Source: Enterobacteria phage mEp213
Sequence record: NC_019720.1
Length of the DNA stretch: 44,120 nt
Strand: one strand, 5' to 3'
Within the stretch, counting starts at the first letter, position 1; the number at the start of each line of letters is the position of its first letter. The notes below the pieces were generated by a model. The model was given only the letters and a program-made list of their open reading frames with translations. It had not been told where the DNA came from and did no database searches. The position numbers were made by a program, and so were the translations under genes. Positions 6,958-44,015 of the stretch are shown piece after piece.

Positions 6958-7536
6958 ATGTCTGTGAAAGGACTGGAAAGGGCTATTCAGAACCTGAACA
7001 GCCTCAGCCGGTTAATCGTTCCTGAGGCAACCGCAAAAGCACTAAACCGGGTGGCCAGCAGAACGATAAGCCAGGGGAGCAAAGCTGTAGCGAAAGAAGC
7101 AACAGTTGATGATAACCGGAAAAAGGGACTTCCGGTTCGTCTGGTCCGCCAGCGTTCCCGTCTGCGCAAGGCTCGTCACGATCGCCAGGTCGCGTCGATA
7201 AAAATCAACCGCGGTAATCTTCCTGCGATAAAGCTCGGCACGGCGCGCGTCCGGCTCTCGCGTAAAAAAGGGGCCAGAAACGGAGCGGGCAGCGTCCTTA
7301 AAATCGGGCCCTATACCTTTCGTAACGCTTTTATCCAACAGCTCTCGAACGGGCGCTGGCAGGTCATGCGGCGCGTAGGTCAGGCCCGTTATCCGATTGA
7401 TGTGGTCAAAGTTCCTCTTGAGACACCGCTCACCGTGGCCTTCACCGCTATTTCAAAGCGCCTTATTGAAAGCGATATGCCCAAAGAACTTTCCGCAGCC
7501 CTGAAAAACCAACTGAGGATCCACCTGAAGCGATGA
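6958..7536 (+). CDS. Z: Tail completion protein Z
   Basis: 192 aa; close match to remembered lambda gpZ (NRVASR...SQ, KINRG.LP.IKLG.ARV.LSR, NGRW.VM.RV...RYPIDVVK.P). Confidence 0.85.
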   Translation: MSVKGLERAIQNLNSLSRLIVPEATAKALNRVASRTISQGSKAVAKEATVDDNRKKGLPVRLVRQRSRLRKARHDRQVASIKINRGNLPAIKLGTARVRLSRKKGARNGAGSVLKIGPYTFRNAFIQQLSNGRWQVMRRVGQARYPIDVVKVPLETPLTVAFTAISKRLIESDMPKELSAALKNQLRIHLKR

Positions 7537-7934
7537 ACAGACACAGCGCAATTCGTGCAGCCATTCTGGCAAAACTGAAAGCCGAGATCACCGACACGGT
7601 CACCTGGTTTGACGGGCGCCCTGTTTTTCTTGAAGAGCAGGATCTCCCTGCCGTGGCTGTATACCTTTCTGACGCGGAGTACACCGGCGACTCGCTTGAC
7701 GAAGATTCGTGGCAGGCGGTTGTTCACATCGAGGTATTTCTTAAAGCCTCCAGCCCCGACAGCGCGCTTGATTCCTGGATGGAAGAGAAAGTGTATCCGG
7801 CAATGGCCTTCATCCCGGGTCTGACCGAACTGGTCGAGACGTTCACCCCGCAGGGTTATGACTATCAGCGGGATGATGAAATGGCCACCTGGGGTTCAGT
7901 CGATTTCACGTACTTAATCACCTATTCAATTTAA
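7533..7934 (+). CDS. U: Tail terminator protein U
   Basis: 133 aa; matches lambda gpU motifs (FDGRP.VF.E.D.PAVAVYL..AEYTG, HIEVFL, GYDY.RDD). Confidence 0.85.
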   Translation: MNRHSAIRAAILAKLKAEITDTVTWFDGRPVFLEEQDLPAVAVYLSDAEYTGDSLDEDSWQAVVHIEVFLKASSPDSALDSWMEEKVYPAMAFIPGLTELVETFTPQGYDYQRDDEMATWGSVDFTYLITYSI

Positions 7935-7943
7935 GAGGTACTT

Positions 7944-8687
7944 ATGCCTACTCCAAACCCGCTGGCCCCCGTGAAAGGTGCCGGTACCACACTCTGGCTT
8001 TACACCGGAACGGGCAACGCTTTCGCTAACCCACTCTCGGATATCGACTGGAACCGCCTGGCGAAAATTAAAGAGCTGACGCCGGGCGAAATGACCGCAG
8101 AATCGTATGACGACACTTACCTCGACGACGAGGATGCCGACTGGAACGCGACGGCCCAGGGGGCAAAATCTGCTGGCGATACCTCGTTCACCCTCGCCTG
8201 GAAGCCGGGCGAAGAAGGGCAAAAAGACCTTGTCGCATGGTTTATTGATGGCTCAGTACGTTATTACAAAATCAAATACCCGAACGGTACCGTCGACGTT
8301 TTCTGTGGCTGGTGCAGCAGCCTGGGTAAAGCCATTCCGGCAAAAGAGGTCATTACCCGTACAGCGAAAATCACCAATACCGGCAAGCCGGAACTGGCAG
8401 AAGAAAGCGGGACCCCGAATATCCCCGTGACCGGCGTTACGCTCGATAAAGCCACGGCAAGCGTGGTCGTCGGCGCAACCACAACGCTCAATGTGACGGT
8501 TAACCCTGCCAGTGCCTCAGATACCTCGTTCCGCGTGGCAACCTCCGACGGGGCAAAAGCAACGGTCACCGTTAGCGGCAACGCGATCACCGTCACCGGC
8601 GTGGCGGCAGGCACCGCTGACGTTATTGTTATGACCAGCGACGGTAATTTCGTTGCGGTCTGCAAAGTCACCGTAACTGCAGCGTAA
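7944..8687 (+). CDS. V: Major tail protein V with C-terminal Ig-like domain
   Basis: [15 protein letters not shown]...ANPLSD.DW.RLAK, NGTVDVF.GW.SS.GKA; Thr/Val-rich C-terminal repeats. Confidence 0.9.
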
Positions 8688-8697
8688 GGAAGGACGC

Positions 8698-9138
8698 ATG
8701 TTTCTGAAAAAAGAGAAGTTCACCTGGCAAACAGAGTCCCTGACCATCTTCGAGCTGTCGGCCCTTCAGCGTATTGAGTTCCTCACGTTTATGGCAAATG
8801 AGGAGAAGGCCGTCAGCGCTGACAGCGATGGCATAAGCGATCAGGAAGTCACGACCCGGCTGATAGGTTCAAATATTCGCTGCGGTGCGCGCTTGATCGC
8901 GATGTCTTTGTGGCATAACGAGCCGGCCGGCACGGATGTGGAAACGTTGTATCAGCAGGTCCTGAGCAGCTGGCCGCCGGAGGCTATCGGCAAAGCCGAA
9001 ATGCAGGTCAAGCTACTATCAGGCATGTTATTCCCCGTTGAAGATGAGAAAGTTGATCATCAGGACGTGGAGGGTTTAACTGACTCCTCTGCTAACGAAG
9101 AATCCGTTACCGCGGAAAAGCCCTTGCCAGCGAGCTGA
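8698..9138 (+). CDS. G: Tail assembly chaperone G
   Basis: MFLK....LSELSALQRIE...AMSLWHN matches lambda gpG. Confidence 0.85.
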   Translation: MFLKKEKFTWQTESLTIFELSALQRIEFLTFMANEEKAVSADSDGISDQEVTTRLIGSNIRCGARLIAMSLWHNEPAGTDVETLYQQVLSSWPPEAIGKAEMQVKLLSGMLFPVEDEKVDHQDVEGLTDSSANEESVTAEKPLPAS

Positions 9139-9461
9139 AGTTTGTCCTGAATCTGGCGCGCGAGTTCGGTCGACCCGACTGGCGCGCCATGCTGGCTGGG
9201 ATGACTTCCAGTGAACTGGGCGACTGGCACCTGTTCTACCGGGAGCATTATTTTCAGGACGCGCAGCTCGATGCGCATTTCTCCGGGCTGCTTTATTCCA
9301 TCTCCACTCTTTTCTTCCGCGATCCGGAACTTACCCCCGCACATTTCAGCCTGCTTTCTCCTTCGGAAAGCGTCATCAGCGATGACGAGCCGGATGATGA
9401 TACGCTGATGACCGCCGCTGAGGGGATAACAGGAGGTATCCGATATGGCCCAGCAGATTAG
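8698..9461 (+). CDS. T: Tail assembly chaperone GT fusion via programmed -1 frameshift (slip near 9114-9120)
   Basis: The -1 frame is open from 9096 to 9461 and overlaps the G 3' end; G GAA AAG sits at the lambda G-T slip position; T-frame stop overlaps H start. Confidence 0.65.
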
Positions 9462-12400
9462 CGACCTGGTCATCAACCTTGATGTCGACAGTGCTACTTT
9501 TAGCGAGCAGGTTGCCCGTATAAAGGGGCAGCTAACCGGAATGGGGGACGAATCCGAAAAAGTCCGCACACGTATGCAGCAGGCCGCAGAATTGCAGGCC
9601 TCGGCGCTTGCTAAAGCAGCGGCAGGCAGCGGTGCGGCCATGTCGGATATGTTGGCTCAGCAGTCAACGGCTGCAGCTGGTCTTAGCGCTGACATGCAAA
9701 AAGTCGGCGAGTCCGTTGAACAAACCTACCAGCGAGTGGCTGGATTAAGTGAGCAACTCAGGGAGAACGCATCCCGGGCATCAGCGCTTGCGCAGCAACA
9801 GGATGCGCTGGCGGCGTCGTTCTATCGACAGATTGACGGCGTGAGGTCGCTGACCGGAGAAACGGACTCTCTGTCGTCGGTTCAGGAGCAATTCCGGAAG
9901 GCCCGTGCGCAGGGGAATATCACGCAGCAGGATTATCTTGCGCTGATATCCCAGACCACAGCCCGGCAAAAAGAACTACAACAGGCCGAAGAAAAAGCCA
10001 GTCAGGCTCGATCCCGGTTTCTTCAACAGCTCAAAACCCAGGTTGAAGAACAAAAATTATCCAGAACCGAATTACTGAATCTGAAGGCCGCGCAACTGGG
10101 TGTAAGTGAAGAAGCTGCACCACTTATTGCAAGACTTCAGGAACAGGAAAATGCATGGAGAAAAGGAACGCTCAGTGCCGGGCAGTATCGCCAGGCGATC
10201 CGTATGTTACCCGCTCAGTTTACGGATATTGCAACCTCGATAGCAGGTGGAATGCCGCTGTGGATGGTCCTGATGCAGCAGGGCGGGCAAATCAGCGATT
10301 CATTTGGTGGAGTCGGTAATCTTTTCCAGATTATCAAAGAAGAATTACTGGGGATTAAATCATCCGCAGATGAATCTGAGGAATCACTTTCTGAAAACGC
10401 CAATGCACTGGCGGAGAATGCAGAACACAGCAGAGGTTTTCTGAGGGCTCTGACTCCAGTACGTCTTGCTATGGGTGGACTTGTCGGGGGGCTGGCACTA
10501 TTGGCCTTTGCCTGGTACAAAGGCAGCAGTGAAGCATCTGAATTTAATAAACAGCTTATTCTGACGGGGAATTATGCCGGTAAGACAACCGGACAGCTGA
10601 GCGATTTAGCTCGCAAAATTTCAGAAACGGCAGGTGTCACCACCGGAAATGCAGCTGCCACTCTTGCGAAGGTTGTTGGTAGCGGGCAGTTCCGGGGAAA
10701 CCAGCTGGAATACATCACCACGGCGGCTGCAGCAATGGAGGACGCGGTCGGGCAGTCGGTTGATAAAACGCTCGCGAACTTTAAGAAATTATATGATTCG
10801 CCAACACAGGCGTCAGAAGAGCTTAACAGTCAGCTACATTACCTCTCGGCAGCTCAGTTCCAATATATTTCCGAGCTTGAGCGCAGGGGGGATAAAGAGG
10901 CGGCAGGAGAAAAGGCCGCGCAGGCTTACAGTGCTGCTGAGCAACAGCGAAGCCAGCAGATACTTGATAACCTGGGTTTGATAGATCGCTTTGTTCGTGG
11001 TGTAACGGATACCTGGGGTGCTTACTGGGATGCCGCCCTGGGTATTGGTCGCCAGCAAACGGCCAGCGATCAGCTGGAGTCTGTCAGGGCGCGGATAAAA
11101 ACACTGACGGATAACACCCGGCCGGGTGTTTTTGGAATGGGCAATACTGGTGATGGGGGGGCCGCAGAAAAAGAGTTGGCCTCATTACGTCAGAAGGAAA
11201 GTGAACTTACTTTTGTAATTCGTTCACAGGAGGGGTACAACCAGGCACAGGCCAAATCGCAGCAGTTGAATACTGAAGGAGTGAAAGCCCAGGGGATACT
11301 GAACAAGTTCCTGGACGCAGGCGCGAGCAAAGCACAGAAAAGGGCAGACGCGGAAAGGGAACTCAATAAAGCCATCACAACCAATGCTGAACTGGTCAAA
11401 AAAACGCAATTTCTTCCTGAGGGCCAGCGCGTTAAGCCTCTCAGTAAGGCAGAAATTGCTCAGGCCAGAAAGGGAATAGAGGAACTCTATAAAGATCCAA
11501 AAGTCCCTAAATCAAAAGGATATACCGCCCCTGCTGGTGACAAAGCCGAGGAAAAGGCGCAGGCCGAACTTCTCACCCTTCAGGCCCAGCTTAAAACGCT
11601 CGAGCAGCATATCAGCGTAAACGACGTTATCAGCAAACAGCGTCAGGATCTCTGGCAGACTGAAAATCAGTTCACCGTTCTGCAGGAGGCCGCGGGGCGT
11701 CGTCAGCTTACGGCGCAGGAAAAATCACTGCTGGCGCACAAGGAAGAAACGCTCGAGTACAAGCGGCAGCTGGCCGACCTGGGAGATAAGGTTGCTCAAC
11801 AGCAAAAGCTCAACCAACTGGCCGATCAGGCCGTGAAGTTTGAGCAGCAGCAAAAAGCCGCCAGGGCGGGCCTGCAGGCTCAGTCTGAGGGGGTATCCAC
11901 CCGGGAAGCAGGGCGACAAACTACGCTGCAGCGCCTCAGCGAAAGCTATTCGTACAACCCTCAGGCGCAGCAAAAGGTTCTCGAAGAGCAAAGGGCGACG
12001 TTCGAGGCTGAAGATGCCCTGCGTGCAAACTGGCTGGCCGGAGCGAAACAGGGCTGGGCCGAATATCAGGATTCAGCGACAAACGTTTTCAGCTCTGTTC
12101 AGCAGATTTCGCAGGCAACGTTCAGCGGGCTGGCGGGCCAGCTTACCAGCCTGACGACAACCGGGAAGGCGAGCTTCAGGGAATTCACCAGCTCGATCCT
12201 TAAAATGATTGTGTCCGTTATCAACCAGCTGCTGGTGGCTTACACCATCCAGAGTGCAATGGGCTGGGTTAGCGGCGGGGCGAAAACCTCCTCTGCCGGT
12301 CAGTCATTCGCGGTCCCGTCATACCGGCCACAGGGTTTTGACGTGGGCGGTTTTACCGGGCACGGCGGCAAGTACGAGCCAGCCGGTATCGTTCACCGCG

Positions 12401-12705
12401 GGGAATTCGTCTTCACCAAAGAATCAACCAGCCGCATCGGCGTGGCTAATCTCTATCGCCTGATGCGCGGGTATGCCTCGGGTGGTCTGGTCGGCGGCGG
12501 GAGCGCAGTCGGTGCTGGTATGGGGGGGATAAGTGTTTATGCCCCAGTCAGCATCAGCCAGCAGGGGGGAGACGGAAACATAAATCAGGCGAACGCCACG
12601 GGGACGGCGAAACAGCTGCAGGCGATTGTTCAGCAGACAATCACCGAGCGACTGAAAAAAGAAATGTCCGCAGGCGGCGTGCTTTATTCGAGGAGGACAC
12701 AGTGA
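9445..12705 (+). CDS. H: Tail tape measure protein H
   Basis: 1086 aa; long helical Ala/Gln-rich body; lambda gpH-like N- and C-terminal motifs (QYRQAIRMLPAQFTD, GKYEPAGIVHRGEFVFTKE). Confidence 0.9.
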   Translation: MAQQISDLVINLDVDSATFSEQVARIKGQLTGMGDESEKVRTRMQQAAELQASALAKAAAGSGAAMSDMLAQQSTAAAGLSADMQKVGESVEQTYQRVAGLSEQLRENASRASALAQQQDALAASFYRQIDGVRSLTGETDSLSSVQEQFRKARAQGNITQQDYLALISQTTARQKELQQAEEKASQARSRFLQQLKTQVEEQKLSRTELLNLKAAQLGVSEEAAPLIARLQEQENAWRKGTLSAGQYRQAIRMLPAQFTDIATSIAGGMPLWMVLMQQGGQISDSFGGVGNLFQIIKEELLGIKSSADESEESLSENANALAENAEHSRGFLRALTPVRLAMGGLVGGLALLAFAWYKGSSEASEFNKQLILTGNYAGKTTGQLSDLARKISETAGVTTGNAAATLAKVVGSGQFRGNQLEYITTAAAAMEDAVGQSVDKTLANFKKLYDSPTQASEELNSQLHYLSAAQFQYISELERRGDKEAAGEKAAQAYSAAEQQRSQQILDNLGLIDRFVRGVTDTWGAYWDAALGIGRQQTASDQLESVRARIKTLTDNTRPGVFGMGNTGDGGAAEKELASLRQKESELTFVIRSQEGYNQAQAKSQQLNTEGVKAQGILNKFLDAGASKAQKRADAERELNKAITTNAELVKKTQFLPEGQRVKPLSKAEIAQARKGIEELYKDPKVPKSKGYTAPAGDKAEEKAQAELLTLQAQLKTLEQHISVNDVISKQRQDLWQTENQFTVLQEAAGRRQLTAQEKSLLAHKEETLEYKRQLADLGDKVAQQQKLNQLADQAVKFEQQQKAARAGLQAQSEGVSTREAGRQTTLQRLSESYSYNPQAQQKVLEEQRATFEAEDALRANWLAGAKQGWAEYQDSATNVFSSVQQISQATFSGLAGQLTSLTTTGKASFREFTSSILKMIVSVINQLLVAYTIQSAMGWVSGGAKTSSAGQSFAVPSYRPQGFDVGGFTGHGGKYEPAGIVHRGEFVFTKESTSRIGVANLYRLMRGYASGGLVGGGSAVGAGMGGISVYAPVSISQQGGDGNINQANATGTAKQLQAIVQQTITERLKKEMSAGGVLYSRRTQ

Positions 12706-13040
12706 CGGACACATTTACCTGGCGCACGCGCAAAACCGCGCAGGGCACTGAAACAGCCCGAACGCTGCAGGCCCAGTTCGGGGATGGCTACAAACAGATA
12801 GCAGGGATGGGAATCAACGACAAACAGGAAACGTGGAATCTGGACTGGACTGGAACCAGACAGGAGGCGGCTGCGCTGCGTGCTTTTCTGATGTCTCACG
12901 TTACTAAATCGTTCTGGTGGACCACGCCATGGGGTGAAAAAAAGTTGTTCAGAATGAAGGCCGATTCGTTCAGCGTTTCTTTCCCTACCGGGAAAAAAGC
13001 CACTGTGGCCTTCACTTTTGAACAGGCGTTCGCGCCCTGA
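12702..13040 (+). CDS. M: Minor tail protein M
   Basis: 112 aa; FGDGY.Q motif; GTG start overlaps H stop. Confidence 0.85.
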   Translation: MTDTFTWRTRKTAQGTETARTLQAQFGDGYKQIAGMGINDKQETWNLDWTGTRQEAAALRAFLMSHVTKSFWWTTPWGEKKLFRMKADSFSVSFPTGKKATVAFTFEQAFAP

Positions 13041-13060
13041 TTTTCTCGACAAACACTGAA

Positions 13061-13089
13061 AGCTGCCTCCGGGCGGCTTTTTTTTATGG
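13061..13089 (+). terminator. Intrinsic terminator-like hairpin between M and L
   Basis: AGCTGCC-TCCG-GGCGGCT stem-loop (one wobble pair) followed by T9. Confidence 0.5.
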
Positions 13090-13096
13090 GGGGAGT

Positions 13097-13834
13097 ATGA
13101 GTTTTACGGCAGACATACAACAGCTTGAGCCCGGCAGCGTTATTCAGCTGATTGAGATCGACGGCACTGAATTCGGTATGGATCAGGTGCTGCGTTTTCA
13201 TGCGCACAATATTCAGGAAGAGGGGTGGGCAGCCTTCGCCGCAGAAAATCTGCCCGCCATTATCTGGCAGGGAAACCAGTACGATCCCCATCCCTACGAA
13301 CTTAAGGGGATGGAGTTATCGAGTACAGGTTCCCAGCCAACGCCCACGCTGTCCGTCGGGAACGTCGGAAACTATGTCACCGCGCTGTGTCTTGAATATG
13401 ACGATATGGTCAGGGCTAAGGTCAAAATCCACACCACGCTTTCGAAGTATCTCGATGCCGCCAACTGGAAAAACGGTAACCCGGGTGCCAGCCCGGCCGA
13501 TGAGCGCGTACAGCTCTTTTACGTCAATGCTAAAACCGCAGAGACGCGGGTACAGGTTGATTTCGAGCTGTGTTCTCCTTTCGATATTCAGAGCCTGCAG
13601 CTGCCGACACGGCAGATTACGCCTGTCTGCACCTGGTGTATGCGGGGCTGGTACCGAAGCGGGACCGGATGCGATTACAACGGCACGAAATACTTTACCA
13701 AAGACGGTACACCGACCGATGACCCGTCGAAAGATGTATGTGGCGGCCGCCGGCAGGATTGTCAGGATCGTCACGGCCCGGACGCGCCGCTGCCGTTCGG
13801 CGGTTTTCCGGCTGCAAACCTGCAGGGGAAATAA
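13097..13834 (+). CDS. L: Minor tail protein L
   Basis: 245 aa; W.G..Y.P.P, TCTW, GGF motifs as in lambda gpL; Cys-rich C-terminus. Confidence 0.85.
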   Translation: MSFTADIQQLEPGSVIQLIEIDGTEFGMDQVLRFHAHNIQEEGWAAFAAENLPAIIWQGNQYDPHPYELKGMELSSTGSQPTPTLSVGNVGNYVTALCLEYDDMVRAKVKIHTTLSKYLDAANWKNGNPGASPADERVQLFYVNAKTAETRVQVDFELCSPFDIQSLQLPTRQITPVCTWCMRGWYRSGTGCDYNGTKYFTKDGTPTDDPSKDVCGGRRQDCQDRHGPDAPLPFGGFPAANLQGK

Positions 13835-13835
13835 A

Positions 13836-14555
13836 ATGCGTGAAAAATTGCTGGATGCTATCCGTCAGCACGTCGCTGCTGAATACCCCAAAGAAGCCTG
13901 CGGCCTGATTGTTCAGTCAGGCCAGCAACAAATCTTTATTCCCTGCCGCAACATTGCCGATAAGCCCGAGGAGACATTCACGCTCTCCCCGGAAGACCAG
14001 CTCGCTGCCCGCGCGCGCGGTGAGATCATCATGCTCATTCATTCCCATCCGGATGTGGTTCGGCTGGTGCCATCGGAGCTGGACCGGATCCAGTGCGACT
14101 GGTCGGGGATTGAGTGGGGGATCATGTCCTGGCCGGACGGGGATTTTTGTACGATTTCCCCGCGTGAAGACCGGGATTATGCCGGGCGGCAGTGGGTGCT
14201 GGGTTACGCCGACTGCTGGTCGCTTATCCGTGAATTTTATCTGCGCGAATACGGCATTGTTCTCGGCAATTATTCAGTACCTTACGAATGGTGGGAAAGC
14301 GGCGAGGAGCGGCTCTACGACGACAACTGGGAGCGTGAGGGATTTGTTGAGGTTGCCGCTGGTGCAATGCAGCCAGGGGACATCATCATGATGAGTGTGC
14401 AGGCATCGGTGACTAATCACGCCGCGGTATATGTGGGTGACAACATCATTCTCCATCATCTTTTCGGGCACCTTTCTTCGCGAACGCCTTATGGAAAATA
14501 TTATCGCGACAGAACGGTCCGGGTGGTCAGGCATAAGGACAGAATGCATGGTTAA
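13836..14555 (+). CDS. K: Tail assembly protein K (JAB/MPN plus NlpC/P60-like)
   Basis: EYP.EACGL and HSHP motifs, C-terminal Cys/His residues; the listed 467-aa ORF is trimmed to ATG 13836 after the L stop. Confidence 0.85.
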   Translation: MREKLLDAIRQHVAAEYPKEACGLIVQSGQQQIFIPCRNIADKPEETFTLSPEDQLAARARGEIIMLIHSHPDVVRLVPSELDRIQCDWSGIEWGIMSWPDGDFCTISPREDRDYAGRQWVLGYADCWSLIREFYLREYGIVLGNYSVPYEWWESGEERLYDDNWEREGFVEVAAGAMQPGDIIMMSVQASVTNHAAVYVGDNIILHHLFGHLSSRTPYGKYYRDRTVRVVRHKDRMHG

Positions 14556-15165
14556 GACGCTAATTCTCGAAGGGAAAATGGCTAAAAAATTCGGTAAACG
14601 CGTTCAGTTTGATGTTGCCGATCTGCGCGAAATGCTCAGGGCCATGTGTTCACAGGTTCCCGGATTCAAAAAATATATGTCGGAAGCTCATATGAAGGGG
14701 ATCCGTTTCGCCTTTTTTAACGGTGACAACAATATCGGGCTGGAAGAGTTTGATATGACCCGCGGTGGAAGCGTGTACCGGATCGTGCCCGTTTATGAGG
14801 GGGCCAAAAATTCAGGCGTCCTGCAGATAGTTGTCGGGGCTGTTGCGCTGGTCGCTGCATTCTTTACCGCTGGTGCGAGCATGGCAGCCTGGGGCGCGGC
14901 GATGAGTGCAACAGCTATCAGCGCCACGTCAATTCTGACAGGGGTCGGAGTGTCGATGATGCTGGGGGGCGTTGTCCAGATGCTCACGCCCCAGCCATCC
15001 TTCGGCGCGGGTAAATCCTCCAGCACGGACAACACGCCTAACTACGCCTTCGGGGCGCCGGTCAATACCGTCGCTATGGGGCATCCTGTCCCCCTGGCCT
15101 ACGGTCTGACTGAGGCAGGGGGAGCGATAGTCAGCGCCGGTATGTACTCGAGCGATCAGCAGTAG
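14548..15165 (+). CDS. I: Tail assembly protein I
   Basis: N-terminal ubiquitin-like segment and Gly/Ala-rich hydrophobic C-terminus as in lambda gpI; start overlaps K stop. Confidence 0.8.
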   Translation: MVKTLILEGKMAKKFGKRVQFDVADLREMLRAMCSQVPGFKKYMSEAHMKGIRFAFFNGDNNIGLEEFDMTRGGSVYRIVPVYEGAKNSGVLQIVVGAVALVAAFFTAGASMAAWGAAMSATAISATSILTGVGVSMMLGGVVQMLTPQPSFGAGKSSSTDNTPNYAFGAPVNTVAMGHPVPLAYGLTEAGGAIVSAGMYSSDQQ

Positions 15166-15187
15166 GCCTGTGGCCACTAACTTAAAG

Positions 15188-15207
15188 GTGCTTCGGCACT
15201 TTTTTTA
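15188..15207 (+). terminator. Terminator-like hairpin immediately upstream of J
   Basis: GTGC-TTCG-GCAC stem-loop followed by T7 that runs into the J start codon. Confidence 0.4.
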
Positions 15208-18200
15208 TGGGTGAAAAAATGCAGCTTCTTAAACAAGAAACCATCCTGCAGGGTGCCAAAGGGGGAGGTGGCAGTTCACATACTCCTGTTGAGCAGCCTG
15301 ACGATCTGTTGTCGGTCGCAAAATTAAAAATGCTCATTGCCGTTTCTGAGGGGGAAATACAGGGCGACCTGACCGCTCAGAATATTTTTCTCAACGATAC
15401 GCCGCTGGCAAACGACAGCGGGGAATACAACTTCAGCGGCGTGAAATGGGAGTTCCGCAAGGGCACACAGGACCAGACCTATATTGCCGGGATGCCCCAG
15501 GTCGACAACGAGCTGGCCGTGGGCACAACTGTCACCACCACCGCGCCCTGGACGCGCCAGTTTACAAACCTTTCCCTGGATGCCATCCGTATCAAGCTCA
15601 GCCTTCCGGTCCAGTATCTCTATAAAGATAATGGCGATATGGTGGGCACGGTCACCGAGTATGCGATCGATTTATCAACGGACGGCGGCGCCTGGAAAAC
15701 GGTTGTAAACGGCAAGTTTGACGGAAAGACCAAGACGGAATATCAGCGTGACCACCGTATCGATCTGCCAAAATCCACGTCCGGCTGGTCTGTCAGGGTC
15801 AGGCGTATTACGGCTGATGCCAGCGGATCAAATTCGAAACTGGTTAACGCCTTCAAGGTGTTTTCGTATGCGGAAGTCATCGACAGCAAGCTTCGTTATC
15901 CTTTAACAGCGCTCCTGTATGTCGAAGTGGACAGCAGCCAATTCAACGGCAGCGCGCCGAAAGTGACCTGTAAGATAAAAGGCAAGCTGATTAAGGTTCC
16001 GGATAATTACGATCCGAAAACCCGAACCTATTCTGGTTCATGGTCCGGCGGGTTCAAAATGGCATGGTCCAATAACCCTGCCTGGATCTTTTACGATCTG
16101 GTTCTGGATGAAATTTACGGCATGGGCACGCGCGTGGATGCGTCCATGGTGGATAAGTGGGCGCTGTATTCAATCGCCCAGTACTGTGACGAAATGGTTT
16201 CCGACGGGGCCGGTGGCACCGAACCGCGTTTCACCTGCAACGTTTTCATTCAGAGCCAGGAGGACGCCTGGCAGGTACTTAACGATCTCGCCGCGGTATT
16301 TCGTGGAATAACGTTCTGGGGCAACGATCAGATTTATGTCCAGGCAGACGTCCCGCAGGACGATGTTGACTGGGTTTATAACGTCTCAAACGTTATCGAT
16401 GGGCTGTTTACTTATGCGGGCGGCTCATACAAGAATCGCTACAGCTCCTGCCTGGTGTCCTGGTCCGATCCGCAGAATCATTACAGCGATACCGTTGAGG
16501 GGGTCTACGATTCGGCGCTGGTAGAGCGTTACGACGTCCGGCAGACGTCCCTGACCGCAATCGGCTGCACCTCGCAAAGTGAAGCGCACCGGCGCGGTCG
16601 CTGGGTATTACTCTCCAATGCCAAAGACGGCACCGTATCGTTTGGCGTGGGGTTGGACGGTTATATCCCTTTGCCCGCTGAAATTATCGGTGTCGCCGAT
16701 CCTTTCCGTTCTGGTAAGGAGAACGGGGGCCGCATAAGCGCGGTCAACGGCCGCCAGATTACCCTTGATCGAGAAATAGACTACGCGGCGAAAGACCGGC
16801 TGGTGGTTAACCTTCCCGACGGAAAAGCCCAGACGCGGACAATCAGCGCGGTGAGCGCCGATAAAAAAACGGTGACGGTGGCTACGGCATTCAGTCAGGT
16901 TCCTGTGGCTGGCGCTGTCTGGGCGATAGACAGTGATAACCTCGCAATACAGTACTTCAGGGTCACCTCAATCGCGGCTAACGACGACAGCACAGGCGGT
17001 TTCACTATTACGGCCGTTCAGCACGATCCAAACAAATATCGTTACATCGATGACGGCGTTCGGGTCGAGTCTCCCCCGATCACCGTCACGCCGATAAGCG
17101 TCCTGTCTGCTCCGAAGAATATCGTGGTGACTGAGAGCGATCATGTGTCTCAGGGGCTGACTGTAGCAAGCCTGGACGTGTCATGGGATAAGGTAGAGGG
17201 CGCAATCCGGTATGTTGCCCAGTGGCGTAAGGACAACGGGGACTGGATAAACGTTCCGGTTACCAGCGCGCAGGGTTTCTCGGTTCAGGGCATTTATTCG
17301 GGCAGCTATGACGTGCGCGTACGGGCACTGAATGCGCAGGATACGTCGTCACCATGGGGATACGGTGAAACAACTTATCTCTCCGGTAAAACGGGAAAAC
17401 CGGGTACTCCGCTCAACTTCCTGGCGACCGAAGATGTGGTCTGGCATATCGACCTGACATGGAAATTTCCGGATGGCTCAGGCGACACGGCCTATACAGA
17501 GATTCAGCGCGCCACAACTGCCGACTACGCCAATCCTGAACTGCTGGTCCTGGTGCCGTACCCGGCTGCAGATTATCAGCATGGCCCCATGCCTGCCGGC
17601 GTTCGCCAGTGGTACCGCGCGCGCCTGATTGACCGTATCGGTAACGCCGGGGACTGGACCGACTGGATCATGGGCACGTCCTCGATAGATGTCAGCGAAA
17701 TAACCAATGACATTCTGGAGGATATGAAAGAGTCGGAAACGTTCAAAGACCTGATCGAGAACGCGGTGGACAGCAACGAAAAAATTGCTGGCATGGCTAA
17801 CGATATCAAACAGGCTAACGACGAACTGGAGCAGCAAGCGAAAGATATCGCCAAAAATGCCCAGGACGTAGGGAAGGTTCAGACCAGCGTTAATGAGCTT
17901 TCCAGCACGGTCGGGAATGTTTCGTCTTCACTCAGTCAGCTTGAGCAGACCGTTGCGACGGCTGATACCGCCCTGGGCCAGCGAATCGACAACATCAGCG
18001 TTTCTATGGACGGCATGACGGGCGGGGTGAAGAACTCTGCAATTGCGATAATCCAGGCCAACCTCGCTCAGGTGGCCACGCGTAAAACCCTTTCTGCATC
18101 GGTCGCCGGCAACAGCGCGAATCTGGACCGTATTGATGAGGTGATTGTCAACGACAGGGAGGCAACGGCGCGCTCGCTGCTGAGCCTGCAGACGGACGTT

Positions 18201-18887
18201 AACGGCAACAAGGCATCCATAAACAGCCTGAATCAGACGTTCTCCGACTATCAGCAGGCAACGGCGCGCTCGCTGCTGAGCCTGCAGACGGACGTTAACG
18301 GCAACAAGGCATCCATAAACAGCCTGAATCAGACGTTCTCCGACTATCAGCAGGCAACGGCCACGCAGATAAACGGCATCACGGCGACCGTGAACGGGCA
18401 TACCTCAGCCATCACCACTAATGCTCAGGCGATAGCCAACGTTAATGGCGACCTCAGCGCGATGTATAACATCAAGGTTGGCGTAACCAGTAACGGGCAG
18501 TATTACGCTGCCGGGATGGGGATTGGGGTTCAGAATACACCCTCCGGCATGCAGTCACAGGTAATATTCCTGGCCGACCGATTTGCTGTTACCACTGCTG
18601 CCGGAAACAGCGTGGCGTTACCATTTGTGATCCAGAATGGTCAGACGTTCATCAGGGCCAGCTTCATTCAGGACGGTACCATTGAGAACGCCAAAATCGG
18701 TAACTATATCCAGTCGAATAACTATGTGGCTGGCTCTGCAGGCTGGAAACTTGATAAGGGGGGCACCTGGGAAAACTGCGGCAGCGACGGTCAGGGAGCA
18801 AGAAAATCCACCAATGTCACTGACAGTATCAGGGATTCAAATGGCGTGCTCCGCGTGCAAATCGGCAAACTTACAGGGGTGTTTTGA
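15207..18887 (+). CDS. J: Tail tip/central fibre protein J (host specificity)
   Basis: 1226 aa; lambda gpJ-like through the N-terminal two-thirds (SSHTP, KWALY.I.QYCD, GGTEPR.TCN); divergent, shorter C-terminus. Confidence 0.9.
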   Translation: MGEKMQLLKQETILQGAKGGGGSSHTPVEQPDDLLSVAKLKMLIAVSEGEIQGDLTAQNIFLNDTPLANDSGEYNFSGVKWEFRKGTQDQTYIAGMPQVDNELAVGTTVTTTAPWTRQFTNLSLDAIRIKLSLPVQYLYKDNGDMVGTVTEYAIDLSTDGGAWKTVVNGKFDGKTKTEYQRDHRIDLPKSTSGWSVRVRRITADASGSNSKLVNAFKVFSYAEVIDSKLRYPLTALLYVEVDSSQFNGSAPKVTCKIKGKLIKVPDNYDPKTRTYSGSWSGGFKMAWSNNPAWIFYDLVLDEIYGMGTRVDASMVDKWALYSIAQYCDEMVSDGAGGTEPRFTCNVFIQSQEDAWQVLNDLAAVFRGITFWGNDQIYVQADVPQDDVDWVYNVSNVIDGLFTYAGGSYKNRYSSCLVSWSDPQNHYSDTVEGVYDSALVERYDVRQTSLTAIGCTSQSEAHRRGRWVLLSNAKDGTVSFGVGLDGYIPLPAEIIGVADPFRSGKENGGRISAVNGRQITLDREIDYAAKDRLVVNLPDGKAQTRTISAVSADKKTVTVATAFSQVPVAGAVWAIDSDNLAIQYFRVTSIAANDDSTGGFTITAVQHDPNKYRYIDDGVRVESPPITVTPISVLSAPKNIVVTESDHVSQGLTVASLDVSWDKVEGAIRYVAQWRKDNGDWINVPVTSAQGFSVQGIYSGSYDVRVRALNAQDTSSPWGYGETTYLSGKTGKPGTPLNFLATEDVVWHIDLTWKFPDGSGDTAYTEIQRATTADYANPELLVLVPYPAADYQHGPMPAGVRQWYRARLIDRIGNAGDWTDWIMGTSSIDVSEITNDILEDMKESETFKDLIENAVDSNEKIAGMANDIKQANDELEQQAKDIAKNAQDVGKVQTSVNELSSTVGNVSSSLSQLEQTVATADTALGQRIDNISVSMDGMTGGVKNSAIAIIQANLAQVATRKTLSASVAGNSANLDRIDEVIVNDREATARSLLSLQTDVNGNKASINSLNQTFSDYQQATARSLLSLQTDVNGNKASINSLNQTFSDYQQATATQINGITATVNGHTSAITTNAQAIANVNGDLSAMYNIKVGVTSNGQYYAAGMGIGVQNTPSGMQSQVIFLADRFAVTTAAGNSVALPFVIQNGQTFIRASFIQDGTIENAKIGNYIQSNNYVAGSAGWKLDKGGTWENCGSDGQGARKSTNVTDSIRDSNGVLRVQIGKLTGVF
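18162..18353 (+). repeat. Perfect tandem duplication, 2 x 96 bp, in frame within J
   Basis: Identical 96-nt units at 18162-18257 and 18258-18353; encodes ATARSLLSLQTDVNGNKASINSLNQTFSDYQQ twice. Confidence 0.9.
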
Positions 18888-21201: not shown

Positions 21202-21806
21202 TGAAACCTGTTTTCGATGTAAACGGACTGGCAACAGAACCGGGTGAAATCCGCTGTTATTACTACGACGCTGTGACTTCTGAATATATGGGATGGTCTG
21301 ACGAGTTTATTAACATCGGTGTCAGTATGCCCGGATGCTCTACGGCGATAGAACCAGGGGCCGAAGCAGGAGGGAAGGTATTTATTTTTTCTGGATCTGA
21401 GTGGGTGCTTAAAGAAGACCATCGTGGAGAAACAGCATACACCACCAGTAACGGGAAGCCGGTGACTATCGAATATATTGGACCGTTGCGTGAAGGCTTT
21501 ACTTTTGAAGCACCAACTACAAAGTTTGATAAATGGGATGGTAATAAATGGGTTGCCGATCCAGAAGCTCAGCGCGCATATGATATTTCTGTGGCGGCAA
21601 CAAAACTACAGGCGCTGATTAGCCAGGCCAATGACTTTATGAATGGTAAGCAATGGCCTGGTAAAGCAGCAATGGGTCGCCTGAAGGACGCAGAAAAAGA
21701 ACAATATAATGCCTGGCTTGATTATCTGGATGCGCTGGAGGGCGTTGATACCGCCAGCGCACCGGATATTGAATGGCCTACGCCTCCGGAAGTTCAGGCC
21801 AGATGA
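21201..21806 (+). CDS. tfa: Tail fibre assembly chaperone
   Basis: 201 aa; Tfa-like N-terminus and C-terminal DYLDALEGVDTASAPDIEWPTPP motif; ATG overlaps stf stop. Confidence 0.85.
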   Translation: MKPVFDVNGLATEPGEIRCYYYDAVTSEYMGWSDEFINIGVSMPGCSTAIEPGAEAGGKVFIFSGSEWVLKEDHRGETAYTTSNGKPVTIEYIGPLREGFTFEAPTTKFDKWDGNKWVADPEAQRAYDISVAATKLQALISQANDFMNGKQWPGKAAMGRLKDAEKEQYNAWLDYLDALEGVDTASAPDIEWPTPPEVQAR

Positions 21807-21837
21807 CATCCGGCGCACAGGACAAAACTGATACGCA

Positions 21838-21875
21838 CAAAGCCTTGCACTGGATTGCAAGGCTTTGTGCTCTTC
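21838..21875 (+). terminator. Terminator after tail fibre operon
   Basis: 12-bp perfect stem CAAAGCCTTGCA / TGCAAGGCTTTG with 6-nt loop, followed by a U-rich tract. Confidence 0.55.
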
Positions 21876-21907
21876 TGTGAATGTGTGGCTATATGTTTGA
21901 AGATCGT

Positions 21908-22140
21908 TGTGCCGTATTTGTGACATATATATGGCAACATCATGCATCAACTTTCTGTTTGTGCCATCAACTATAGCTTAGTGAATGCGGTTAATGCTTG
22001 CTAAAACAGATAGTTATGATTGGTGCTACAGATTCGTAATGCGAAGGTCGTAGGTTCGACTCCTATTATCGGCACCATTTAAATCAATGAGTTACCTCGC
22101 ATTTAAGTAAACCACGTTCTCCTCTTGTGCCGTATTTGTG
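21908..22140. other. attP-like region: 16-bp arm-type direct repeats flanking a tRNA-derived core
   Basis: TTGTGCCGTATTTGTG at 21908-21923 and 22125-22140; further GTGCCAT words between them. Confidence 0.5.
22032..22077 (+). other. att core: 3' 46 nt of a tRNA-Thr(CGU) gene (thrW-like), not a complete tRNA
   Basis: Matches remembered thrW 3' part from the anticodon loop through T-arm to CCA; no matching 5' acceptor strand upstream. Confidence 0.6.
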
Positions 22141-23252
22141 CCATTGCGACTTATAATCGCATCGATTTTGCTCGCGTGCTCGGTGAGATGCCCGGCTGAA
22201 AGGTGGGCGTATCTTTGAACCATTTCGAGAGTTTCCCATCCTCCCATCTCTTTAAGTGCAAGAAGAGAGACACCGGACTGAACCAGCCAGCTTGCCCAAG
22301 TATGCCTCAGGTCATGGAAGCGGAAGTTGCTAATGCCTGCCCGCTTTAACGCTCCCTTCCATGCCTTGTTGCTGTCGGTTCTCATCTTCCTTATCGCTGC
22401 TGTTTTTGTTCCGTCGCTTCGGTAGGCAGGTTTGGTGTGGACAAACACCCATCTCTTATGGAGCCCCTGCTGTTTTCTTAATATCTGGCATGCGGTTTCG
22501 TTAAGAGGAACTCCGATCGCATTGCCAGCTTTTGTTTCATCAGGGTGCATCCATGCCATTTTCTTATCCAGATCGACCTGTGACCACTCAAGGTCTGTAA
22601 CGTTGGAACGGCGAAGGCCTGTCGTGATTGCAAACATGACCACAGGGAAGAAATGAGGAGCAATTTCTGCAAACAGGCGCTTCGATTCCTCCTCTGTAAG
22701 CCATCTGATTCGTCCATTCTTAACGCGTGGTGTTGATATTTTGGGCGCCCTGTCAAGCCATCCCCATTCAACAGCCATATTGAGAATAGCGCGAAGTATT
22801 GCCAGATGCCGCGTCTTCGTTCCTTTGCTTGCCAGCTTTGGTTTATACTCCGGCACTGGCTTGCCAAGCCGCAAACACCTGTCCCGGCTCATTTCCCAGT
22901 TCAGGCGATGGCGGCGGTTTTCCATCCCGTCTACCGCCTCCATTATTTTTTCTGTTGTTATGTCAGAGAGAATGGTTTCTCTGAAGTGCAACATCCAGAA
23001 CGATATAATGCTCTTGTCATCATCAATGGACTTCTTATCCGATTTCTCACGCAGCCACCGTATACAGGCTTCCTTGAATAGCTTTTTCGGTGATTCCCCG
23101 AGATTTTTTACTCTCCACGCTTCTGCTTTCAGACGATCGTGAAGTTCTTGCGCTTGCCTTTTGTCCGATGTTTCAAGAGAGCGTCTAACTCTTGATCCAT
23201 CTGGCGCGACGAAATCACAGTGCCACGTGCCACCGCGTAGTTTGATTGACAT
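22092..23252 (-). CDS. int: Tyrosine integrase, P22 Int-like
   Basis: 386 aa; C-terminal HDLRHTWASWLVQ.GV and R..Y motifs; close to remembered P22 Int, which uses thrW. Confidence 0.9.
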   Translation of the reverse strand: MSIKLRGGTWHCDFVAPDGSRVRRSLETSDKRQAQELHDRLKAEAWRVKNLGESPKKLFKEACIRWLREKSDKKSIDDDKSIISFWMLHFRETILSDITTEKIMEAVDGMENRRHRLNWEMSRDRCLRLGKPVPEYKPKLASKGTKTRHLAILRAILNMAVEWGWLDRAPKISTPRVKNGRIRWLTEEESKRLFAEIAPHFFPVVMFAITTGLRRSNVTDLEWSQVDLDKKMAWMHPDETKAGNAIGVPLNETACQILRKQQGLHKRWVFVHTKPAYRSDGTKTAAIRKMRTDSNKAWKGALKRAGISNFRFHDLRHTWASWLVQSGVSLLALKEMGGWETLEMVQRYAHLSAGHLTEHASKIDAIISRNGTNTAQEENVVYLNAR

Positions 23253-23476
23253 GCTTTAACCTCCTGCACATCAACCGCATTCACCGCGCTATTGTGTCTT
23301 ACAGACTTAAGCGCCGCAATGCAGTCTGACTTGCAAATGCGATATGGACTTTTAGGTTTATCTGGATTTATCTTTGCGGCCTGAAGTCGTCCACTTCGTA
23401 TCCACTGCGTGATAGTGCCTTTGTCTACCTTCAGATACGATGCTGCCTCTTCACGAGTGAAGATTTCTTCTTCCAC
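23129..23476 (-). CDS. xis: Excisionase, overlapping int start
   Basis: 115 aa directly upstream of and overlapping int in another frame (P22-like arrangement); N-terminal HTH-like segment. Confidence 0.6.
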   Translation of the reverse strand: MEEEIFTREEAASYLKVDKGTITQWIRSGRLQAAKINPDKPKSPYRICKSDCIAALKSVRHNSAVNAVDVQEVKACQSNYAVARGTVISSRQMDQELDALLKHRTKGKRKNFTIV

Positions 23477-23565
23477 TTGGAATCTCCATTTATTGAGTTG
23501 GTATTATTGCGGTAGGTCTGGATATCTTGAGAAATGAACAGGCCTCATCGAGTGTGAGGCTGTGG

Positions 23566-23910
23566 TTAGTCCTTGCGTAACTCGCTGATTCTTCTGTAAG
23601 TCTCTGGTGCTTTGTTTCCGTGTATCTTCATTTCAGACTTCAACAGAGCAACGAGAGAATCCCATTCGTTGAGGATGCCTTTGAATGCCGGAACGCGCTT
23701 TGCAACCTTGTCGAATGAATCCCTGATTTCTGGAATCTGCTCAACAAGTGCAACGCATCGTCGGAAATCGGCTGCATCATGTGGAGCGCCGAAGTGATGA
23801 CCATAGATATTCTTTTTCAGTCCACATGCGATTGAGGCAAGAGTTGCGCTACTGATGCCGACATCGCCAGTCGATTGCCATTTCAAAACCTTCATAGCCA
23901 AATCTGACAT
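23566..23910 (-). CDS. Hypothetical protein
   Basis: 114 aa with GGAG RBS, located just downstream of a leftward terminator. Confidence 0.5.
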   Translation of the reverse strand: MSDLAMKVLKWQSTGDVGISSATLASIACGLKKNIYGHHFGAPHDAADFRRCVALVEQIPEIRDSFDKVAKRVPAFKGILNEWDSLVALLKSEMKIHGNKAPETYRRISELRKD

Positions 23911-27583: not shown

Positions 27584-27967
27584 TTAGAAGGGAATTGAAT
27601 CGTCGTATTCAGGATGATTTTGATGATTGCTACTTTGCTGCTGTTGGCTGTTTCCTGAAGTTGCAAATCCAATCTTTGCATTCAGTAATTCAAGAGTGAT
27701 TGATTGACCATTTTGCCCCTGATAAACATCAACCCTGATGTTTTCTCCGGTAATTTCCACAATGCCACCTTCAACAAGAACACTACGGTAGTAATCCGCT
27801 TGCGCTCCTGGCTTGGCAAATACAACGGCGCTGTAGTTTGTCCATTCTTTCTTTTTTGTCTGGCGATCGTAATACTGAACGCCAGCACGGATGTTGAATC
27901 CGATATTTTCCCCGGCCTGAAACTCTCTTGCGGGTTTGTTTAGTCTTACAGTAATCGAATGTGCCAT
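27584..27967 (-). CDS. ssb: Single-stranded DNA-binding protein-like
   Basis: 127 aa; OB-fold-like body and C-terminal acidic tail ending DDSIPF; start overlaps erf stop (TAATG). Confidence 0.55.
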   Translation of the reverse strand: MAHSITVRLNKPAREFQAGENIGFNIRAGVQYYDRQTKKKEWTNYSAVVFAKPGAQADYYRSVLVEGGIVEITGENIRVDVYQGQNGQSITLELLNAKIGFATSGNSQQQQSSNHQNHPEYDDSIPF

Positions 27968-28572
27968 TAAGCAGCCGCTCCTTCTAATTCGTCTCGTCTG
28001 ATGTTGTAAACGTCCTGCGCTTTGTGCTGCTCCGGTGTTCCTTCGAGCATCTTCCACGCTTTGGCGAACGCCTGTTTAAGCTCTTCCACGGTGTTTTTCT
28101 GCATTGCTGCGTCAGTGAATGCTTTTAGAACCTGTTCAGGTGTAGGTGATGGTTTTGATTGCTTTGCTACTGCGTTCTGCTGATGTTTATGCTCGTCTGT
28201 ATCTGCATCTTTCGCATCATCAATGCCGAACAAACCATTGAGGCAATACTTGCGTGCATAAGAGCTTGTAGCTCCCGTAACTTGTGCAGAATCCATCCCT
28301 TTCTTGCTTTCTTCCTCTCGTGCAAGAGCGGTTGCCGTATGACTGTTTTCGCCATCGGTAATAGTTGCCGTGGCTTTCACGTAATACCGATCACCAATCA
28401 ACACAACTTCATCGCTGATTGATAAAAACAGGCCATTCAGTAACGGCTTAACGCCTTCAAGAATGTCTTCGCAGCTTCTGTATTTATATTTTCCGAATGA
28501 GTTGTACTGATTCTTTGGCGCGTTCAGATTTTCCTGAATAGCTGCCAGTCTTGCGTAAAATTCTTTGCTCAT
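27967..28572 (-). CDS. erf: Erf single-strand annealing recombinase (P22 Erf-like)
   Basis: MSKEFYARLAAIQENLNAPKNQYNSFGKYKYRSCEDILEGVKPLL... closely matches remembered P22 Erf. Confidence 0.85.
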   Translation of the reverse strand: MSKEFYARLAAIQENLNAPKNQYNSFGKYKYRSCEDILEGVKPLLNGLFLSISDEVVLIGDRYYVKATATITDGENSHTATALAREEESKKGMDSAQVTGATSSYARKYCLNGLFGIDDAKDADTDEHKHQQNAVAKQSKPSPTPEQVLKAFTDAAMQKNTVEELKQAFAKAWKMLEGTPEQHKAQDVYNIRRDELEGAAA

Positions 28573-28661
28573 ATGATTGTTCTCAGAATGGACATGGCCC
28601 AAGGAAATAACGCTGATTTAATACTTCAGTCTTTGCCGCATTTAAAAATACGCGAACACCT

Positions 28662-28832
28662 TCACGATCTCCCTTCTGGCGATACATTAACGCCTGCTGC
28701 GTGTACATGCGTCTCTGTAACTTGCTCTCCTTCACTGTGGTTGCAAGTGACATGAATATCTCCTTCGTTACCGATTAATTCTTTCATCTGACGAATGAAT
28801 TCTTCGTCTGACCAGTTATCTGTAAAACTCAT
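28662..28832 (-). CDS. Hypothetical small acidic protein (56 aa)
   Basis: ATG overlaps the Kil-like stop (ATGA coupling). Confidence 0.35.
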   Translation of the reverse strand: MSFTDNWSDEEFIRQMKELIGNEGDIHVTCNHSEGEQVTETHVHAAGVNVSPEGRS

Positions 28833-28981
28833 TTCCTGCGATACCACTGAAGGTTGATAGCTGATTTCATCGCTTTATTTGCTTCAAGCCACATTTTTGA
28901 ATCACCAATAAATCTGGCTATTACTGCTTTGTTCTGTGCAGCACGAAGCATCTGGTGATTGATGGCTATTTCATTGCGCAT
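28829..28981 (-). CDS. kil: Kil-like host-killing/cell-division inhibitor (50 aa)
   Basis: IARFIGDSKMWLEA resembles lambda Kil (ATFIGDEKMFREA); directly downstream of cIII-like gene. Confidence 0.5.
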   Translation of the reverse strand: MRNEIAINHQMLRAAQNKAVIARFIGDSKMWLEANKAMKSAINLQWYRRK

Positions 28982-32904: not shown

Positions 32905-32935
32905 GCCCTTCTTCAGGGCTTAATTTTTAAGAGCG
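32905..32935 (-). promoter_or_regulatory. nutL (boxA CGCTCTTAA and boxB GCCCTGAAGAAGGGC on the - strand)
   Basis: Reverse complement of 32905-32935 gives boxA then boxB as in lambda nutL. Confidence 0.85.
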
Positions 32936-34094: not shown

Positions 34095-34126
34095 AGCTCT
34101 TACACATCCCAGCCCTGAAAAAGGGC
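34095..34126 (+). promoter_or_regulatory. nutR (boxA GCTCTTACA, boxB GCCCTGAAAAAGGGC)
   Basis: Matches lambda nutR from memory; followed by lambda-like tR1/cII leader. Confidence 0.85.
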
Positions 34127-44003: not shown

Positions 44004-44015
44004 GGGCGGCGCGCT
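44004..44015. other. cosN-like cohesive end site (GGGCGGCGCGCT)
   Basis: Flanking sequence ...GGGTCC...CCACG|GGGCGGCGCGCT|CGCGGG parallels the lambda cos junction from memory; palindromes upstream. Confidence 0.55.

Follow-up and report, generated by a model that had tools for sequence, protein, structure and literature searches.

How the lambdoid coliphage mEp213 enters the chromosome of its host is the question raised by a short region of its genome, in which a fragment of a tRNA gene lies beside the integrase gene and identical 16-mers stand on either side of it. Do these elements make up a working attachment site and, if so, to which integration system does it belong? We analysed the whole 44,120-bp mEp213 sequence (hereafter, the window), both halves of which are 100% identical to the permuted record PV340538.1. 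Our results indicate that the region is very probably the mEp213 attP together with the convergently oriented int and xis genes, that these form a module of about 1.8 kb belonging to the SfX/HK542 subtype of the P22 family, and that the 16-mers are probably paired arm-type integrase sites.

Note that the thrW attachment site of mEp213 is already known: the phage has been published, the attP of a sister record is annotated and the core is in the literature. The att architecture, too, is that of a system characterised decades ago. Over positions 1-24500, the window matches Enterobacteria phage mEp043 c-1 (JQ182734) with 100% identity and without any shift in coordinates; the record of that phage lists a 'prophage attachment site (type CP4-6)' at 22032..22079, similar to the thrW tRNA and ptwF tRNA genes, an integrase similar to that of Shigella phage SfX at 22092..23252 and an excisionase at 23129..23476. 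Equivalent attP/thrW annotations are present in the HK542, HK446 and mEpX2 records. The arm-type sites of mEp213 are absent from its GenBank annotation, and the refinement made here is a map of five predicted sites and the family-wide co-variation of the arm motif with the Int N-terminus. We also considered the permutation of PV340538.1 as proof of integration and rejected it; the ends of that record correspond to window positions 22086 and 22089, just outside the core, and carry no att annotation.

The attP core is the 3' part of thrW

The core and the site that adjoins it are the following:

22032-22077, plus strand: attP common core, ATTCGTAATGCGAAGGTCGTAGGTTCGACTCCTATTATCGGCACCA, 46 nt, identical to nt 31-76 of thrW tRNA-Thr(CGU)
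22082-22094, plus strand: predicted IHF-consensus site, AATCAATGAGTTA, adjoining the core and overlapping the int stop codon, in the place of the P22-type H' site

The preliminary description of this sequence had named the core as the 3' 46 nt of thrW, and had proposed an alignment as the check. In support of this, alignment of the core with the annotated 76-nt tRNA-Thr that lies directly downstream of proA in E. coli LI60C3 gave 100% identity to nt 31-76 of that gene, so the match to a tRNA-Thr 3' end stands. On the 3' side, the identity to thrW continues for 1-2 nt after the CCA, as far as 22078/22079; on the 5' side, it breaks off sharply at 22031. The core was matched in about 5,000 of the 5,426 E. 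coli genomes. The same description had held that the 5' half of the tRNA is missing. This was borne out: ARAGORN found no tRNA gene in the window, Rfam gave no tRNA match in 21700-22400 even at E<=1, and the thrW identity ends at nt 31; thus, the 5' half is absent. The complete cloverleaf of a functional phage-borne tRNA-Thr gene, with the acceptor 5' strand, the D arm and the anticodon arm, was not found here. Two other Rfam matches in 21700-22400, mir-3149 (on the hairpin described below) and FTX_2, were at chance level and were disregarded.

The same 46-mer is the core of the SfI attP, attL and attR sites, and it is identical in SfII, SfV, SfX and P22; junction sequencing established this 46-nt core as the site of SfI recombination in thrW, beside proA (PMC3636060). 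In the P22 record, the annotated attP core (21300-21322) is ATGCGAAGGTCGTAGGTTCGACT. Since the identical sequence occurs in mEp213 at 22039-22061, strand exchange would be expected there. Regarding the predicted IHF site, WATCAANNNNTTR has two exact matches in the window, one of them at 22082-22094, and P22 reads AATCAAATACTTA at the equivalent position. No second IHF consensus was present on the P arm at <=1 mismatch.

Natural prophages carry the module at thrW

The preliminary description had also proposed a search of host genomes for prophages at thrW with this attL and attR, and the search gave a full prophage and an attL remnant. The full prophage is in E. coli VTB97584v, where genes for an Int with 99% identity and for an Xis homologue come after proB, proA and the tRNA-Thr gene thrW, in a 41-kb prophage that has tail-fibre genes at its end. 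At attL, the 5' part of thrW adjoins a P' arm that does not differ from the one in mEp213; at the far end of the prophage, a P arm 98.6% identical to that of mEp213 is followed by the core. For the module, and not for mEp213 itself, this prophage thus shows in vivo integration at thrW that leaves a core at each end; its tail genes are of the baseplate type (myovirus-like). The remnant is in E. coli AVS0467, in which proA-thrW is followed by an mEp213-type P' arm and a decayed int. A further match of 98% to the P' arm and int (H27) was rejected as evidence of lysogeny because it is an IS66-truncated remnant away from thrW.

Could the 46-nt fragment be an inert relic, left for example by an imprecise excision, with the functional attP elsewhere? 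A partial tRNA without its 5' half could in principle be debris, and many decayed elements crowd the thrW hotspot. However, the 14 nt between the fragment and the int stop are precisely the distance seen in P22, the identical core was mapped experimentally in related phages (PMC3636060), and prophages that carry this Int in nature meet the chromosome precisely at the core, the P' arm lying next to thrW and the P arm at the opposite end. A relic is therefore extremely improbable, and we treat the fragment as the functional core.

Three further occurrences of these sequences were observed. In VTB97584v (NZ_CP178707.1, 3648093-3690978), two heterologous elements lie in tandem at thrW. The first is the 41-kb prophage with the mEp213-type att sequences, whose P arm and core run straight into a P' arm of the SfV type, with TGGGAC sites; the second has a different integrase, followed by yfdT and yfdR. 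In K-12, both thrW and ptwF are present. In K-12 MG1655, ptwF, which is a copy of the thrW core, lies beside the intF gene of CP4-6 and is accompanied by a 68-bp P'-arm fossil (92% identity). This fossil includes the IHF-like site and a tandem CTGTGCCGTATTTGTGCCAT pair, has no integrase behind it and presumably derives from an older prophage of the SfX type that CP4-6 displaced. Finally, the 47,948-bp 'plasmid' NZ_CP141750.1 of E. coli 2023CK-01482 carries an intact P arm, core, P' arm and int (98% over the 351-bp query), and this record probably represents the genome of an excised or circular phage that was taken for a plasmid in the assembly.

Int, Xis and the limits of the module

The genes of the module and the elements at its left edge are the following:

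22092-23252, minus strand: int, 386-aa tyrosine recombinase (PF00589, E = 2.8e-34), SfX/HK542 subtype of the P22 Int family
23129-23476, minus strand: xis, 115-aa HTH_17 excisionase (PF12728 and TIGR01764)
21819-21867, plus strand: left edge of the module, with a degenerate P22/SfV-type arm-site pair, GGACAAAACTGATACGC, and a hairpin
21835-21870, plus strand: perfect hairpin with a 15-bp stem and a 6-nt loop (100% complementary inverted repeat), 3' of the stop of the tail-fibre-assembly gene (21806)

The PF00589 match covers Int residues 184-353, and the catalytic signature R..HxxR..(H/W)..Y is present, with R214, H313, R316, W339 and Y348 conserved in the alignment with P22 Int. Both proteins are homologous to their P22 counterparts over their full length, Int with 54% identity over 380 aa (E = 2e-157) and Xis with 42% over 113 aa (E = 4e-31), and xis overlaps the start of int by 124 nt in both phages. 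Much closer are the integrases of HK446, HK75, ECP1 and mEp043, to which mEp213 Int is at least 99% identical. Across the phage collection, the distribution of Int identities is sharply bimodal (>=99%, n=15; 95-99%, n=1; 60-80%, n=1; <60%, n=239), and we therefore recognise the SfX/HK542 type as a discrete subtype within the P22 Int family. The stretch common to HK542, HK446, mEpX2, HK75 and ECP1 runs from 21821 to 23614, with 97.7-98.8% DNA identity, which makes it a cassette of about 1.8 kb.

The degenerate pair and hairpin at the left edge (21819-21867) showed, in local alignments, about 80-85% identity over 46-48 nt to the P-arm pair and hairpin of P22, SfV, BIS08P22 and 2G7b; compared with those phages, they are displaced by 88 bp away from the core. 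The hairpin is the top terminator-like match on the plus strand and would likely act as the terminator of the late operon. Since it is palindromic, transcripts of the int strand would meet it as well. Taken together, hairpin and degenerate pair (21819-21870) might serve to terminate the late operon, act on int transcripts in the manner of tI/sib, or be the scar of a recombination event.

Five predicted arm-type sites flank the core

The window has exactly two copies of the sequence TTGTGCCGTATTTGTG, one at 21907-21922 and one at 22125-22140, each on the plus strand, and no further copy was present at <=3 mismatches. The preliminary description had reported identical 16-mers on both arms; the repeats are as it described them, although the left copy begins at 21907, one base before the start that it gave (21908). 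It had also placed one copy inside the int 3' end, and the right copy indeed occupies codons 371-376 of the 386 of int, on the opposite strand to the gene. Apart from the 96-bp tandem duplication of the tail-fibre gene, this is the sole identical 16-mer pair in the window whose copies are <=300 bp apart, and no such pair arose in 200 shuffles.

We read each 16-mer as a tandem pair of putative arm-type sites of about 9 bp, 11 bp apart, a spacing close to one helical turn. With a candidate third site on the P arm, the predicted map is as follows:

21907-21915, plus strand: predicted P-arm site 1, TTGTGCCGT, first half of the left 16-mer, with TGTGCC at -124 from the core start
21918-21926, plus strand: predicted P-arm site 2, TTGTGACAT, 11 bp after site 1, one mismatch to TTGTGCCRT, at -113
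21959-21967, plus strand: candidate third P-arm site, TTGTGCCAT, at -72 from the core start
22125-22133, plus strand: predicted P'-arm site 1, TTGTGCCGT, first half of the right 16-mer, inside int codons, at +94
22136-22144, plus strand: predicted P'-arm site 2, TTGTGCCAT, 11 bp after site 1, in int codons 370-372, at +105

Counted from the first base of the core, the motifs of the two phages lie at these positions:

mEp213: -124, -113, -72 (third site), +94 and +105; int stop at +60
P22: -125, -114, -60 (third site), +94 and +105; int stop at +60

When the att regions are aligned, the mEp213 sequence TTGTGCCGTATTTGTG(A/C)CAT stands opposite TGGGACA(N4)TGGGACA of P22. The TGGGACA repeats of P22 were reportedly footprinted as arm-type sites by Smith-Mungo et al. 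in 1994, and the agreement with their positions within 1 bp supports the suggestion, made in the preliminary description, that the 16-mers are likely arm-type Int sites. Genome-wide, TTGTGCCRT has 22 matches at <=1 mismatch on both strands, five of which fall, all in the same orientation, in one att stretch of 240 bp. The P'-arm pair spans int codons 370-376, which encode the peptide NGTNTAQ; the P22 counterpart is SVPNMSH. Since the protein is conserved least in this tail, what appears to have been kept is the DNA motif and not the peptide.

The third P-arm site is flanked by the direct repeats CATCAACTTTCTGTTTGTG and CATCAACTATAGCTTAGTG, 20 bp apart (21945-21983). That these might be Xis binding sites, by analogy with lambda X1/X2, is pure speculation.

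The arm layout recurs in relatives, with other motifs

We compared the arms of ten phages: mEp213, P22 and eight relatives chosen as Int homologues at 51-60% identity, namely klb_E (Klebsiella), ENT1 (Enterobacter), Edno5 (Edwardsiella), Eho59 (Erwinia), SfV, 2G7b, APSE-2 and BIS08P22. Within the 3' end of int, a pair phased by 11 bp is found at +34/+45 in seven of the ten genomes and at +28/+39 in Edno5, counted from the int stop. Eight of the ten have a P-arm pair at -173 to -201, and the third site is found at -120 to -132, direct or inverted, in eight as well (seven of the nine relatives of mEp213). Note that the variant motifs of Eho59 (both arms) and APSE-2 (P' arm) were missed by the pattern scan and are visible in the sequence. 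The targeted tRNA core differs in several of the ten phages, and the arm layout persists.

The type of motif varies among the genomes and is TGTGCC, TGGGAC or TGTGTC. It is the same on both arms in mEp213, P22, klb_E, ENT1 and Edno5; SfV and BIS08P22 show a one-base difference between the arms (TGAGAC vs TGGGAC), and in APSE-2 the two arms have differing motifs. Moreover, an Int N-terminus with WHC.F and R(V/I)R(R/K) accompanies the TGTG(C/T)C motif, and one with WYAS and KRFKQ or KRIKE accompanies TGGGAC. Such co-variation is what one would predict if the N-terminal domain of a heterobivalent integrase reads these motifs as its arm-type sites. In most of the ten phages, then, the arm layout is shared while the motif co-varies with the Int N-terminus, and the assignment of the arm sites is based on positional homology and on this co-variation, in about ten sequences from only two or three clades.

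These data bear on the possibility that the 16-mers are not arm-type sites at all but a chance repeat, a by-product of int coding, or sites for Xis or a transcription factor. One copy does lie within a coding region, and 5 of 100 shuffles gave at least two matches at <=3 mismatches. Exact 16-mer pairs <=300 bp apart, in contrast, were seen in none of the 200 shuffles, and the positions of the P22 repeats are matched within 1 bp. The paired layout with 11-bp phasing recurs in most relatives with different motifs, in several of which they are matched between the arms of each genome, and it is the DNA motif, not the Int tail peptide, that appears to be kept. As for Xis, its sites in the lambda paradigm are found on one arm only. 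We consider it very unlikely that the 16-mers have another role, and keep to their reading as arm-type sites.

The module is distinct from that of P22

Is the module simply the system of P22, with Int, Xis and arm sites interchangeable between the two phages? Core and geometry are identical and both proteins are full-length homologues, all of which would fit. Against this, identity to P22 is only 54% for Int and 42% for Xis, two of the six core positions of the arm motif differ (TGTGCC vs TGGGAC) with matching differences in the Int N-terminus, and the Int identities fall into two sharply separated groups. It is thus unlikely that the two systems are one and the same. The label 'P22-type', given to int and xis in the preliminary description, was right at the level of the family, and the subtype is that of SfX, HK542, HK446 and HK75 rather than P22's own.

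A further proposal, which we put forward tentatively and hold to be doubtful, is that modules of the SfX type and of the P22/SfV type, although their thrW core is identical, build orthogonal intasomes, through arms and Int N-termini that have diverged together; the element at 21819-21867 would then be the scar of an ancestral exchange of arm specificity. The hybrid junction of VTB97584v, in which an mEp213-type P arm and the core meet an SfV-type P' arm, would be consistent with orthogonal arms. If the arms were orthogonal, unrelated prophages in tandem at thrW could integrate and excise independently, with no cross-excision. Moreover, if the divergence of arm specificity is real, the two modules would be a natural pair of integrases with the same attB and different arms, of use for studying and engineering orthogonal intasomes.

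A model for integration and excision

By homology with lambda and P22, mEp213 Int would be a heterobivalent tyrosine recombinase. Its N-terminal domain is predicted to bind the five arm-type sites mapped above, with the consensus TTGTG(C/A)C(G/A)T, and its core-binding and catalytic domains would act on the 46-bp core common to the phage and thrW. IHF probably bends the DNA at 22082-22094. Strand exchange would take place inside the core, most likely in 22039-22061, to judge by the identity with the annotated P22 attP core. The prophage would thereby land between proA-thrW and the downstream DNA, and the 3' 46 nt brought by the phage would replace the displaced part and leave thrW intact, as is seen for both steps in natural lysogens. 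Xis, together with Int, would reverse the reaction.

This analysis supports thrW as the integration locus of mEp213 and places its predicted arm-type sites; for the phage itself it adds little beyond a correct annotation.

A P22-family module in a mosaic genome

The preliminary description had called the genome a mosaic, in which a P22-like integration module is joined to lambda-like late and tail genes. We examined this by comparing the window, ORF by ORF, with lambda and P22 using tblastn, with the following assignments:

Tail genes, 6958-18887: lambda order Z to J, 29-63% amino acid identity; closest by DNA to phi80 (93%)
Head genes: no lambda match except TerL (24%)
int, xis, eaD, abc2 (92%) and erf (74%): closest to P22
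DnaB-type helicase (90%) and Rz/Rz1 (92%): closest to P22
N (93%), cII (84%), NinI (96%), Q (100%), S and R (99%): closest to lambda
Other nin genes, NinE to NinH: lambda, 91-100%
nutL boxB, 32905-32919, and nutR boxB, 34112-34126: exact lambda sequences
Repressor: neither, with 48% identity to P22 c2 and 34% to lambda cI

The mosaic was therefore right in outline. The comparison upheld int, xis and erf as P22-like (Int 54%, Xis 42% and Erf 74% identical to P22), and likewise N (93%), the nut sites (exact boxB), cII (84%), the nin region (91-100%) and Q (100%) as lambda-like. The lambda-like cos was also found, with the overhang GGGCGGCGCGCT at 44004. Other parts of the description need amendment. 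The lysis genes are lambda-like for S and R (99%), but Rz/Rz1 are P22-like (92%); these spanin genes and the DnaB-type helicase had been missed as P22-like components. The tails are of the lambda type (29-63% at the protein level), but to call the late genes lambda-like was an overstatement, as the heads are not, with only TerL matching at 24%. The heads have been described as Gifsy-2-like, and the cos overhang GGGCGGCGCGCT has been quoted (PMC12315714).

Two observations on the sequence itself may be added. The start of the window is not the cohesive end; the lambda-like cos overhang lies at 44004-44015, 117 bp before the window end. In addition, the J-like central tail-fibre gene (15207-18887) contains a perfect 96-bp tandem duplication at 18160-18361 (2.1 copies, 100%), which repeats the 32-aa unit ATARSLLSLQTDVNGNKASINSLNQTFSDYQQ. 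The alignment with the re-sequenced mEp043 (PV340537) stops exactly at 18361, which suggests that isolates differ either in copy number or in the sequence that follows.

Comparison with known systems

The lambda system resembles that of mEp213 in principle. Lambda Int is heterobivalent, with an N-terminal domain that reads arm-type sites; in both systems, a tyrosine integrase of this kind would act on arm-type sites in both arms, with P' sites overlapping the int 3' end, with IHF sites and with Xis as the directionality factor. In the lambda record, the 'int 4' binding feature (27814-27854) overlaps the int CDS (27812-28882). However, no similarity of Int or Xis to lambda was found by tblastn at E<1e-5, at which many other ORFs of the window match lambda, and the module therefore lies outside the strict lambda Int/att family. 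The targets differ as well: mEp213 uses the 3' end of a tRNA gene, with a 46-bp block of identity, whereas lambda uses a 15-bp attB core between gal and bio.

P22 is far closer. The 46-bp core is identical, four of the five repeat positions agree within 1 bp, the int stop lies 14 nt from the CCA in both phages, xis and int overlap by 124 nt, and an IHF-like site stands beside the core. The differences are in the arms. The motif is TGTGCC/TGTGAC in mEp213 and TGGGACA in P22, and the third P-arm site of mEp213 is 12 bp further from the core (-72 vs -60). The hairpin, which lies between the P-arm sites in P22, is outside the arm sites in mEp213, beside the degenerate P22/SfV-type pair.

Finally, SfX, HK542, HK446, HK75, mEpX2, ECP1 and mEp043 carry the same module as mEp213, with 97.7-100% DNA identity over 21821-23614, an Int identity of at least 99% and the same thrW core. 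Inside att-int-xis there is essentially no difference between these phages and mEp213, but the flanking genes differ, the tail fibres on the left and the ea/early-left genes on the right. The att-int-xis module thus moves as a mosaic unit, and it is a clean example of such a cassette passing as one piece among phages with different virion genes.
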